A DNA stretch of 4,264 nt from a virus (taxonomy: Duplodnaviria > Heunggongvirae > Uroviricota > Caudoviricetes), in IMG/VR virus record IMGVR_UViG_2541047119_000017. One strand, written 5' to 3'. The notes under the pieces were generated by a model that saw only the letters and a list, made by a program, of their open reading frames with translations, ran no database searches and had not been told where the DNA came from. Positions 1 to 2,091 of this stretch are shown here, one piece after another. Position numbers and translations under genes: made by a program. Each line of letters opens with the position of its first letter. Within the stretch, counting starts at the first letter, position 1.

Positions 1-209
1 TATGTAATCATTCTGGCAATGCTTAATGCCGCTGCTTTTTCCAGATTGGTGATATCCTGCTCCAGAGCGGACAGATTTTCAGCCTGCTTAGCCCTGGCTT
101 CATTGGCCCATTTCAGGTCCTGCACCGCCTTAATTTTCTGGTGCATCCACTCATAAAGTTCATCATCGGTATAGTCTGGCGCGATGATGACGGGGTCTCG
201 TTTCTGCAT
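1..209 (-). CDS. Hypothetical protein, N-terminal part only (start codon at 209..207, gene continues past the window start); predicted helical/coiled-coil-like sequence
   Basis: Minus-strand ATG at 209..207 preceded by an AAGGAG Shine-Dalgarno (plus-strand CTCCTT at 215..220, 5-nt spacer). The frame stays open for 69 codons to the window edge (MQKRDPVIIAPDYTDDELYEWMHQKIKAVQDLKWANEARAKQAENLSALEQDITNLEKAAALSIARMIT). All three plus-strand frames in 1..209 are closed by early stops. Not in the supplied ORF track because it runs off the window. Confidence 0.55.
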   Translation of the reverse strand, partial: MQKRDPVIIAPDYTDDELYEWMHQKIKAVQDLKWANEARAKQAENLSALEQDITNLEKAAALSIARMIT

Positions 210-281
210 GTCGGCTCCTTGTGGTTAGCGTTGCCTGCTTTTTAACCACGTCAGGCGAGGTGGTATCCTCTGAGGGGTCTG

Positions 282-581
282 TTACTCGAGAGGAAATTGG
301 TTATGAATACAATCAAGTTTTCTTGCCCAGAATGTGGTGGCTAAGTCTTTGACACATCCTTTAAGCCGCAGGGCTCTGACAGTTTCGCGGGAGCCATCTG
401 CAAAAATTGTGGTCACCTTGTAACTGAAGATGAGTCCTCGCAGTTCGATGACGAAATCGTTGACAATATCTTCGGTGCACTCACCAGAGACTTTCTGAAG
501 TAAAGGCGCATACCGCTTAGTTACCGCTCTGATAACTCTTACCTGTCCGGCAATGGCGCTGATATCAATATAAAGCGCCAT
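282..581 (-). CDS. Hypothetical protein (99 aa), leftward early-operon cargo of unknown function
   Basis: Only uninterrupted ORF over 282..581 in any frame; no long plus-strand ORF competes. It lies downstream of and on the same strand as the repressor gene, where Qin carries the ydfABC-dicF-dicB cassette. Weak points: no convincing Shine-Dalgarno upstream of the ATG (AAAGAAACAGCG), and I do not recognise the protein. Confidence 0.4.
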   Translation of the reverse strand: MALYIDISAIAGQVRVIRAVTKRYAPLLQKVSGECTEDIVNDFVIELRGLIFSYKVTTIFADGSRETVRALRLKGCVKDLATTFWARKLDCIHNQFPLE

Positions 582-716
582 CGCTGTTTCTTTGCTGATC
601 CCTGGACGCCTTCCATTCTGATGTTTGACTCGCCCACTGAGAAATCCTCTGCTTCCCCTTAACGCCGGGTAGCGGAACTGTTTGCTGAGAACACCGTGCG
701 GTGTCTTGATGAGTAG

Positions 717-746
717 AATTTAGAATAGCCTAAGAGTTATGGTCAA
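717..746 (-). promoter_or_regulatory. Putative pL-like leftward promoter with overlapping operator (OL-like)
   Basis: Minus strand: -35 TTGACC (plus 741..746), 18-bp spacer, -10 TAAATT (plus 717..722). The spacer contains TTAG-aatagc-CTAA (720..733), the same TTAG-N6-CTAA motif seen three times between the repressor and cro-like genes. A second, imperfect copy gTAG-aaaaac-CTAA lies at 756..769. Confidence 0.3.
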
Positions 747-781
747 GCTTTTTGTGTAGAAAAACCTAAGCTTCTTGATGT

Positions 782-844: not shown

Positions 845-1252
845 TTATTTATTTGCGCTTCTTTTGCGAGCTTTGAGTAGTTCTTCAAAAAGTTTGTTGA
901 AATTCTCAACTCGAGCACGCATCTCTGACAACAGAGCCTTTTGCTCTGACTCAGGCAGTGCGTCGAACAGTTGAAGCAACTCTTTTTGATCTTCTGTCAG
1001 ATTGACTGGCTGATTATCTGGGATCGGTTCGCCTGGTTGCTTATCTTCATCTCCAAAAAGAAGCCAAGTCGGCGAGCACTGAAGCGCCTGGCTCAGTGCG
1101 AATAATCTCTTCCCCGCTGGCTGTGTTTCATCTCTTTCCCATTGAGAAATTGTTACGTGAGCCACTTTGACCAGCTTACCTAATGCGGCCTGAGACAGTT
1201 TTAATTTTTTTCGCCTGTATAAGAGGCGAGCACCGAAGGTTTCGTTTTTCAT
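845..1252 (-). CDS. dicA: DicA-like HTH (XRE/cI-type) prophage repressor, 135 aa
   Basis: ORF 845..1252 (minus). N-terminal HTH signature (LSQAALGKLVKVAHVTISQWERDETQPAGKRLFALSQALQCSPTWLLFGDE) and C-terminal segment (LPESEQ...EMRARVENFNKLFEELLKARKR) closely match my recollection of E. coli Qin DicA (135 aa). Divergent from a cro-like gene across an operator region. No Shine-Dalgarno upstream of the ATG; see the finding on a leaderless transcript. Confidence 0.9.
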   Translation of the reverse strand: MKNETFGARLLYRRKKLKLSQAALGKLVKVAHVTISQWERDETQPAGKRLFALSQALQCSPTWLLFGDEDKQPGEPIPDNQPVNLTEDQKELLQLFDALPESEQKALLSEMRARVENFNKLFEELLKARKRSANK

Positions 1253-1328: not shown

Positions 1329-1556
1329 ATGTTGAAAATTGATGCTATAGCGTTTTTTGGCAGCAAAACAAAGCTTGCCAATGTCGCAGGAGTTAGGCTG
1401 GCAAGCGTTGCTGCATGGGGGGAACTGGTTCCTGAAGGTCGCGCGATGCGCCTGCAAGAGGCATCCGGCGGGGAACTTCAGTACGACCCCAAAGTTTATG
1501 ACGAATATCGTAAGGCAAAGCGGGCGGGGCGGTTGAACAATGAAAATCACCACTGA
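1329..1556 (+). CDS. dicC: DicC/Cro-like small DNA-binding regulator, 75 aa
   Basis: ORF 1329..1556 with AAGGG Shine-Dalgarno (1317..1321), 7-nt spacer. Divergent from the DicA-like repressor across the operator region, which is the cro position. Its size and position match DicC of Qin and YdaS-type Cro analogues. The family call is from context and recollection, not an alignment. Confidence 0.8.
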   Translation: MLKIDAIAFFGSKTKLANVAGVRLASVAAWGELVPEGRAMRLQEASGGELQYDPKVYDEYRKAKRAGRLNNENHH

Positions 1557-2091
1557 ACAGGTTTGTGAGGCTCTGGATACCTGGGTATGCCGACCAGGAA
1601 TGACACAGGAGCAGGCGACGATATTAATCACGGAAGCATTCTGGGCTCTGAAAGAACGCCCGAACATCGATGTTCAACGCGTCACGTTTAATGATGGCGA
1701 GGTTGATCAACGGGCGCTGGGCGTTAACCGGGTGAAGATATTCGAACGCTGGAAAGCTATCGACACCAGAGATAAGCGTGACAAATTCACGGCGCTGATT
1801 CCGGCAATTATGGAGGCTATCCGGATCAGCGATTTCAGATTGTATTGTGAAATTACTGACGGAAAAAGCATTACGTACATGATCGCCGGGTTAAACAAAG
1901 AATATGGCGATGTGGTGGAGTCCGGGCTGCTTTTTGCGGATCCAGTTGTTGTGGAACGTGAGACTGACGAGCTTATAGAAAAAGCTATTGCTTTCAAGCA
2001 CGCGTATCGTCAGCAATACCAATATTACTTTGCAGATAAACAAATGTCTGCCAGGGGGGCGTATGAGTATCGATGCACTACGATGGGCTAA
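1540..2091 (+). CDS. ydaT: YdaT-like protein (proposed functional analogue of CII in Rac/CP-933P-type prophages), 183 aa
   Basis: ORF 1540..2091, ATG overlapping the end of the cro-like gene by 17 nt, with a G-rich ribosome-binding region (GGGGCGG, 1523..1533). It occupies the cII position. The N-terminal MKI..E motif and the internal KFTALIPAIMEAI segment resemble what I recall of E. coli YdaT (MKI..., KIQKLIPAILAIL). Tentative family assignment. Confidence 0.65.
   Translation: MKITTEQVCEALDTWVCRPGMTQEQATILITEAFWALKERPNIDVQRVTFNDGEVDQRALGVNRVKIFERWKAIDTRDKRDKFTALIPAIMEAIRISDFRLYCEITDGKSITYMIAGLNKEYGDVVESGLLFADPVVVERETDELIEKAIAFKHAYRQQYQYYFADKQMSARGAYEYRCTTMG

Follow-up and report, generated by a model that had tools for sequence, protein, structure and literature searches.

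In phages, lambda cII/OOP and other antisense RNAs control early genes. In bacteria and phages, a long antisense overlap of two protein-coding genes is a rarity and a matter of dispute; the cases described in E. coli O157:H7 are reportedly, for the most part, young and taxonomically restricted ORFs lying inside long host genes. They include ano/ECs2385 (PMC5960689), asa (PMC6294744) and three overlapping genes (OLGs) of EDL933 (PMC9927249); they concern ORFs embedded antisense in EHEC ORFs, in frames discarded by annotation pipelines, and reportedly rest mainly on RNA-seq and Ribo-seq. The head of the Qin dicBF operon is formed by dicBp, a promoter repressed by DicA (bioRxiv 10.1101/2023.04.14.536235), and by ydfA, ydfB and ydfC. 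The ECs_2282 family (NF047912) groups putative zinc-binding proteins, and none of its records annotates an opposite-strand gene simultaneously; literature searches for ECs2282 and ECs_2282 found nothing.

The locus that we describe lies in a stretch of 4,264 nucleotides, hereafter the window (IMG/VR record IMGVR_UViG_2541047119_000017), and comprises an ORF that belongs by homology to the phrog_21318 family and, nested antisense within it, a zinc-ribbon gene of the ECs_2282 family; we call this pair the module. As at the head of the Qin operon, a first ORF follows a promoter of the DicA-repressed type and precedes ydfC and dicB, but the slot of ydfA/ydfB holds another gene with a nested antisense partner. 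As with cII/OOP, a transcript converging on an early-operon gene, and complementary to it, would arise beside the immunity region, and the module of some relatives stands exactly in the cII position, after cro; unlike OOP, the predicted antisense transcript would include a conserved gene that codes for a protein, with about two thirds of the partner covered. The module shares with the O157:H7 OLGs an ORF embedded antisense in an EHEC ORF and a frame that annotation pipelines discard. It differs from these cases in being a conserved mobile pair found across genera, with comparative evidence of constraint on both frames and translation signals for both, and in being recognised by sequence comparison. 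The available texts of PMC9927249 and of bioRxiv 2020.11.18.388249 contain no mention of ydfC or dicA and no relevant match for zinc.

The explanation that best accounts for the observations is that the window carries, in degraded form, a probably genuine pair of antisense genes, one fully nested in the other, that would head a repressor-controlled early operon. We put the probability of this reading at about 0.6.

Two overlapping reading frames in an O157:H7 prophage

The window is 100% identical to a lambdoid prophage of E. coli O157:H7 (e.g. NZ_CP033605) and 99.8% identical to records of ompW-integrated phages named PPompW; 519 genomes, including O157:H7, O55:H7 and O111, match it with at least 99% identity. 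Along the minus strand, the DicA-like repressor gene is followed by a 264-nt gap, by the ORF at 282..581 and by ydfC, from 209 leftwards, and the source genome continues downstream of ydfC with two ORFs, dicB, a DUF1482 (YdfD-like) gene and an exonuclease gene. The preliminary description had placed the ORF in the position of the dicB division-inhibition cassette; the cassette is present and has not been replaced, since ydfC abuts the ORF directly downstream and dicB follows about 1.2 kb beyond it. The same O157:H7 genome contains the module a second time, at about 97% identity (NZ_CP033605.1 2153954-2154353), and PGAP annotates this copy as an ECs_2282-family gene, so that its plus-strand ORF reads as intact; most genomes of O157:H7 type show these two places of the module. 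The features of the module and its neighbours are as follows.

845..1252, minus strand: DicA-like HTH repressor gene, upstream of the 99-codon ORF on the same strand
282..581, minus strand: ORF of 99 codons, from the ATG at 581..579 to the stop at 284..282; annotated by PGAP as WP_001240336.1, hypothetical protein
504..581, minus strand: region B, the 26 N-terminal codons of that ORF, outside the zinc-ribbon gene and the cleanest test of minus-strand coding
303..503, plus strand: zinc-ribbon gene of the ECs_2282 family, 66 codons (CPEC...CKNCGH), a pseudogene here with TAA at codon 14
288..295, plus strand: Shine-Dalgarno (SD) sequence of the zinc-ribbon gene (GAGAGGAA), 7-8 nt before its ATG; all clades retain a purine-rich SD
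1..209, minus strand: 5' portion of ydfC, which comes next in the operon, with SD AGGAG at 219..215

The minus-strand ORF is real in the mechanical ORF list, with 99 codons and an ATG start as first described, and the label of an unrecognised orphan does not fit it. Its residues 1-99 match positions 1-99 of the 99 positions of the phrog_21318 profile with an E value of 4.6e-67, and its relatives form about 30 protein clusters from several genera (Escherichia, Klebsiella, Citrobacter). By this homology, the ORF is a 5'-truncated copy of a gene of the phrog_21318 family, whose members encode 93-118 aa. Scans of the 99-aa and 118-aa products against Pfam, NCBIfam and PADLOC gave no meaningful match, and neither product matched the YdfA or YdfB families of Pfam and NCBIfam. 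AlphaFold2 models the long protein with a pLDDT of 72 as alpha-alpha-beta-beta-alpha (helix, helix, beta-hairpin, helix); fold searches with it gave no significant match, and the best E value of profile searches against PDB sequences was not below 0.2. Profile searches and structure prediction, both advised earlier for this product, have in sum supplied a family and no fold match. The C-terminal part of the minus-protein profile also matches P0043 (231 aa, about four tandem repeats of ~53 aa) weakly and in four stretches (E 6.5e-4), a match that is probably spurious. In two Citrobacter copies (L016/L017, 2995-3555, minus strand), the minus frame is open for 186 codons and gene callers give a 174-aa product, a doubtful form, with a conserved SD and ATG at the usual internal position.

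On the opposite strand, 303..503 reads MNTIKFSCPECGG*VFDTSF...AICKNCGHLVTEDE...K and scores 57.3 bits against NF047912 (cutoff 37; E 1e-15) when codon 14 is read as Glu, as in the relatives. The window copy has the two CxxC knuckles, CPEC and CKNCGH, and their four cysteines are invariant across the aligned homologues. Its likeness to the ECs_2282 family lies in the score above cutoff, both knuckles and the length of 66 aa, and its difference in being a pseudogene: phage 640R1 and most of the E. coli relatives have GAA at codon 14, where the window has TAA (342..344). An independent nonsense allele, with its stop at codon 44, occurs in the E. coli-type copy L110 (IMGVR_UViG_2778261572_000003), so the zinc-ribbon gene has been inactivated on at least two occasions. 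Beyond its own family, the protein shows only generic zinc-ribbon similarities in family and profile scans: it reaches 15.7 bits with Lar-type restriction alleviation (TIGR03655), below the cutoff of 39.6, an E value of only 0.0098 with the Lar-like PHROGs family phrog_6422, and weak matches only in PADLOC (E 0.002-0.009). Its AlphaFold2 model is poor (pLDDT 52), and a profile search of genome contigs with the zinc-ribbon alignment returned only two unrelated CxxC proteins (Rhizobium, Bacteroidota MAG). A match to a known family on the opposite strand had been named beforehand as speaking against the minus-strand ORF; such a match is present, in NF047912 at 303..503, yet the comparative data below indicate that the minus frame is coding in the wider family.

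Damage to the copy in the window

Three further features bear on the 5' end of the minus-strand ORF.

635..649, minus strand: GTG (637..635) and SD GAGGA (649..645), the start of the 118-aa form of the relatives
about 630: 1-nt deletion (T), found in the O157:H7 haplotype alone, which puts the GTG start and the remainder of the ORF into different frames
548..597, plus strand: hairpin at 548-586 (-19.2 kcal/mol, z -3.0), then a T-rich tail at 585-597

The first observations made on this part of the ORF stand. The bases before the ATG are AAAGAAACAGCG and hold no GGAGG-like motif, which agrees with the reported lack of an SD, and the start-less stretch upstream, first estimated at about 45 codons, is 46 codons long on recomputation; over it the frame is open without ATG, GTG or TTG, so that the open stretch totals 145 codons. 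The suggestion that a longer gene had degraded to this remnant was well founded, for the relatives encode 118 aa from the GTG with its SD and the window has lost one nucleotide. This deletion was found in one of 20 E. coli-clade haplotypes, the window's own; all relatives have the additional T. Because of it, the GTG and its SD open only a 32-codon ORF (539..637, minus strand), which overlaps the ATG of the 99-codon ORF out of frame, and the open frame upstream of that ATG is left without a start. What remains is a 99-codon ORF with an SD-less ATG inside the -19.2 kcal/mol hairpin, since in the minus-strand RNA the same 548-586 structure encloses the ATG at 579-581.

The partner gene has fared no better: its TAA at codon 14 is carried by three of the 33 E-clade haplotypes, the other 30 having GAA. 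Read against its relatives, the window's copy is one in which both partners are damaged, by one predicted disabling mutation each. The 99-codon ORF is, as a damaged copy, an unpromising toxin candidate, and may be a relic, whether translated or untranslated.

Selection on the two frames

The comparative sample comprises about 55 distinct homologues, namely 33 haplotypes from 99 loci in an E. coli-type clade (E clade) and 21 other haplotypes, which make up a Klebsiella/Citrobacter/Enterobacter-type set (the K clade and more distant copies). Both ORFs are intact in 30 of the 33 E-clade haplotypes and in all 21 others, and, apart from two zinc-ribbon nonsense alleles, neither frame is interrupted at any divergence sampled.

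Judged by its substitutions, the zinc-ribbon frame is clearly under purifying selection everywhere it was sampled. The variable columns of the E clade number 13/8/28 by plus codon position, and its 33 haplotypes show 29 synonymous and 26 nonsynonymous plus-frame changes (N/S 0.24, p 2e-7); pairwise dN/dS in this frame is 0.13-0.25 in all comparisons. Coding on the minus strand only was rejected, as it predicts in simulation a plus-frame dN/dS of ~1.1, the observed values being 0.22-0.28.

Could the zinc-ribbon gene be the only real one? The minus-strand ORF would then be a shadow of it, called by annotators as a 99-codon frame only when the true gene is broken, a reading that we consider improbable. 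Several traits of the locus are those expected of a shadow: the codons of the zinc-ribbon gene are the exact reverse complements of those of the 99-codon ORF, a register in which minus-frame stops need the rare plus codons TTA, CTA and TCA; PGAP and RefSeq annotate the plus-strand gene where it is intact and a minus-strand 'hypothetical protein' only where the plus gene is broken, the annotation switching with the intactness of the plus ORF; the minus family is without a Pfam, NCBIfam or PADLOC match; and minus-frame evolution in the E clade is like that expected under neutrality, next to the plus-frame N/S given above. The data obtained outside E. coli speak against it. In region B, the minus-frame dN/dS is 0.20 within the K clade and 0.27 between clades, control frames giving 0.5-1.9; pN/pS among L014, L016, L019, L114 and L193 is 0.22-0.54, with synonymous sites nearly saturated; and the variable columns of the K core are distributed 21/10/9 over minus codon positions 3/2/1, a third-position bias in the minus frame. 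These figures draw on the pairs that align, L031 and part of L033 being unalignable in region B ungapped and those pairs carrying no information there. Part of the conservation of region B could be an effect of the hairpin, which leaves the three-base periodicity unexplained. A shadow would also fail to account for the conserved SD and start codons of the minus ORF: the K-clade copies have strong SD and ATG starts (e.g. GGAGAGGAAATGATG), and homology stops just upstream of them.

The overlap itself leads in the same direction. The observed minus-frame dN/dS is 0.45-0.60, on a scale biased for overlapping frames, in which second-position changes are more radical than first-position ones; plus-only simulations matched for divergence and omega, in which the acceptance model is crude and the pairs are not independent, give values of ~1.2-1.5 (median 1.2, 2.5% bound 0.61), and a model in which both frames are selected reproduces the observed values of both. 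The plus-only simulations also place a minus-frame stop in 73-85% of descendants and none is observed, the chance of an antisense frame staying open being ~0.03-0.2 per lineage. An OLGenie-like estimator yields an omega_plus of 0.09-0.17 and an omega_minus of 0.27-0.41, the confidence intervals for the K clade and for comparisons between clades lying below 1. The minus frame is also open in the most distant homologues that the profile search detected (P0038/L033, P0039/L031 and L193), and opposite it each of these three retains an intact 66-codon CxxC...CxxCGH ORF. Finally, in two different contexts the minus ORF always runs along the surrounding early operon. These patterns of substitution show purifying selection on the minus frame, region B included, within the Klebsiella/Citrobacter clade and in comparisons across clades, as the reading of a genuine nested pair would have it.

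The E. coli clade presents another picture. Its minus frame has an N/S of 1.10 in the overlap and of 0.64 (p 0.24) in region B; codon-phase bias is absent from region B and from the 19-codon N-terminal extension, and the frame looks neutral in its substitutions, with no detectable amino-acid constraint. The start codon (GTG; ATG in L020) persists together with its GAGGA SD in 19 of 20 haplotypes, and zero minus-frame stops are found where 3-4 are expected under neutrality (P 0.02-0.06). The long ORF of E. coli prophages may be translated with a drifting sequence, or may be on its way out. The first of these states would be explained if translation mattered and the protein did not: the E. coli long ORF would shield the ydfC-dicF-dicB leader from Rho-dependent polarity, or couple translation, and its sequence would be free to drift because only translation matters. 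This account agrees with the conservation of start, SD and open frame at an N/S of ~1 without codon-phase bias, and with the long ORF filling most of the gap between promoter and ydfC. It leaves the amino-acid constraint of the Klebsiella/Citrobacter clade unexplained, and the evidence that the open frame is retained is marginal at the P values given; we hold it to be highly improbable. The least probable reading, that the window's 99-aa product is a functional repressor-controlled effector of host killing, division inhibition or superinfection exclusion, as the preliminary description had proposed, can appeal to a first ORF behind a DicA-type promoter and upstream of ydfC-dicB, open in all haplotypes, but finds no support in Pfam, NCBIfam, PADLOC or fold searches, which gave no similarity to a toxin, defence or division family, and meets a window copy without an SD-bearing start, whose SD-less ATG lies inside a stable hairpin, and an E. 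coli clade without amino-acid constraint.

Control region and possible alternation of the two genes

The reading of a nested gene pair heading an early operon brings in the following control elements.

746..717, minus strand: dicBp/pL-like promoter, sigma-70-like by sequence match (TTGACC-18-TAAATT)
717-733 and 756-770, minus strand: two operator-like sequences flanking this promoter, repeated in the dicA/dicC-like intergenic region
241..269, plus strand: promoter-like element of the zinc-ribbon gene (TTTAAC-17-TATCCT), with TG at 261-262 (extended -10)

The promoter at 746..717 agrees with the leader of about 130 nt predicted for the ORF. The two operator-like sequences, of 15-17 nt, are reverse-complement copies (82% and 93%) of 1254-1270 and 1278-1292, and probably serve, like their counterparts there, as operators of the DicA-like repressor. 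Promoter and repeats together fit a DicA-repressed control of the dicBp type for the 99-codon ORF; the repressor control supposed in the preliminary description is in keeping with this arrangement, the ORF being the first behind a DicA-type promoter with operator-like repeats.

For the zinc-ribbon gene, we infer an extended -10 promoter (TGgTATCCT) in the element at 241-269. This element overlaps the palindrome CCAC-N10-GTGG (246-263) and the repeat GCCTG...CAGGC, and occurs once in the window, against 0.06 expected by chance. It is conserved in the E clade, L016, L019 and L033, and in L031 with compensatory changes in both inverted repeats; its core of ~30 nt, TTTAACCAC-N-TCAGGC-NN-GGTGGTAT (241-266 in the window), is kept in clades whose flanking genes differ. 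Another plus-strand promoter match, at 286..313, was set aside as it overlaps the gene's own start. At the other end of the gene, the hairpin at 548-586 and its T-run could be the zinc-ribbon terminator, situated inside the 5' end of the long ORF. An Rfam scan of the entire window at E <= 1 gave zero matches, by which a known RNA element is ruled out as an explanation.

The long ORF (93-118 aa) is the first after the pL/dicBp-like promoter or, in some relatives, the first after cro. On the pL side as on the pR side, its direction is that of the early operon and opposite to that of the zinc-ribbon gene. From this layout, a mechanism can be drawn in which the repressor, by holding the early promoter off, would allow the zinc-ribbon gene to be transcribed from its own promoter. 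Upon derepression, early transcription would run antisense through the zinc-ribbon gene, and the collision of transcription together with the formation of a fully complementary RNA duplex would silence this gene while the long ORF is translated. That the two genes are expressed alternately is a tentative proposal, the odds being somewhat against it; the fuller version, in which the module would be a mobile nested antisense pair with two functional proteins made mutually exclusive by convergent transcription, is more doubtful.

If the products did alternate, the repressed prophage would make the zinc-ribbon protein and a derepressed one the long protein, a new regulatory layout that would add a strand-switch layer to the lambdoid lysogeny/lysis circuit. 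The pair would also be among the few bacterial or phage antisense pairs with selection on both frames across genera, and there would be a case for re-annotating several hundred copies in E. coli and other enterobacterial prophages. Current annotation has no means of representing it: the pipelines allow one gene per locus, and the databases here flip strands on a single nonsense mutation. The pair is a clean test case, being short, conserved across genera and provided with a region outside the overlap as an internal control, and it is placed at a well-understood regulatory node, behind a repressor-controlled promoter and upstream of the toxic dicF/dicB.

Some further observations concern the surroundings of the module. 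In a Klebsiella/Citrobacter subgroup (L014, L015, L027 and L028), it stands after a cro-like gene, on the replication-gene side, in the cII position. Other relatives (L005, L008, L011 and L022-L025) carry toxin-antitoxin pairs (RelE/ParE, PaaA2-ParE, HigB-HigA) between the repressor gene and the module, and their homology to the window ends at ~678-711. In the window itself, the YdaT-family gene at 1540-2091 (plus strand), which PGAP gives as frameshifted in the source genome, is an uninterrupted ORF of 183 codons; it exceeds the 141-aa YdaT of the relatives and overlaps the next gene, whose start is at 2062.
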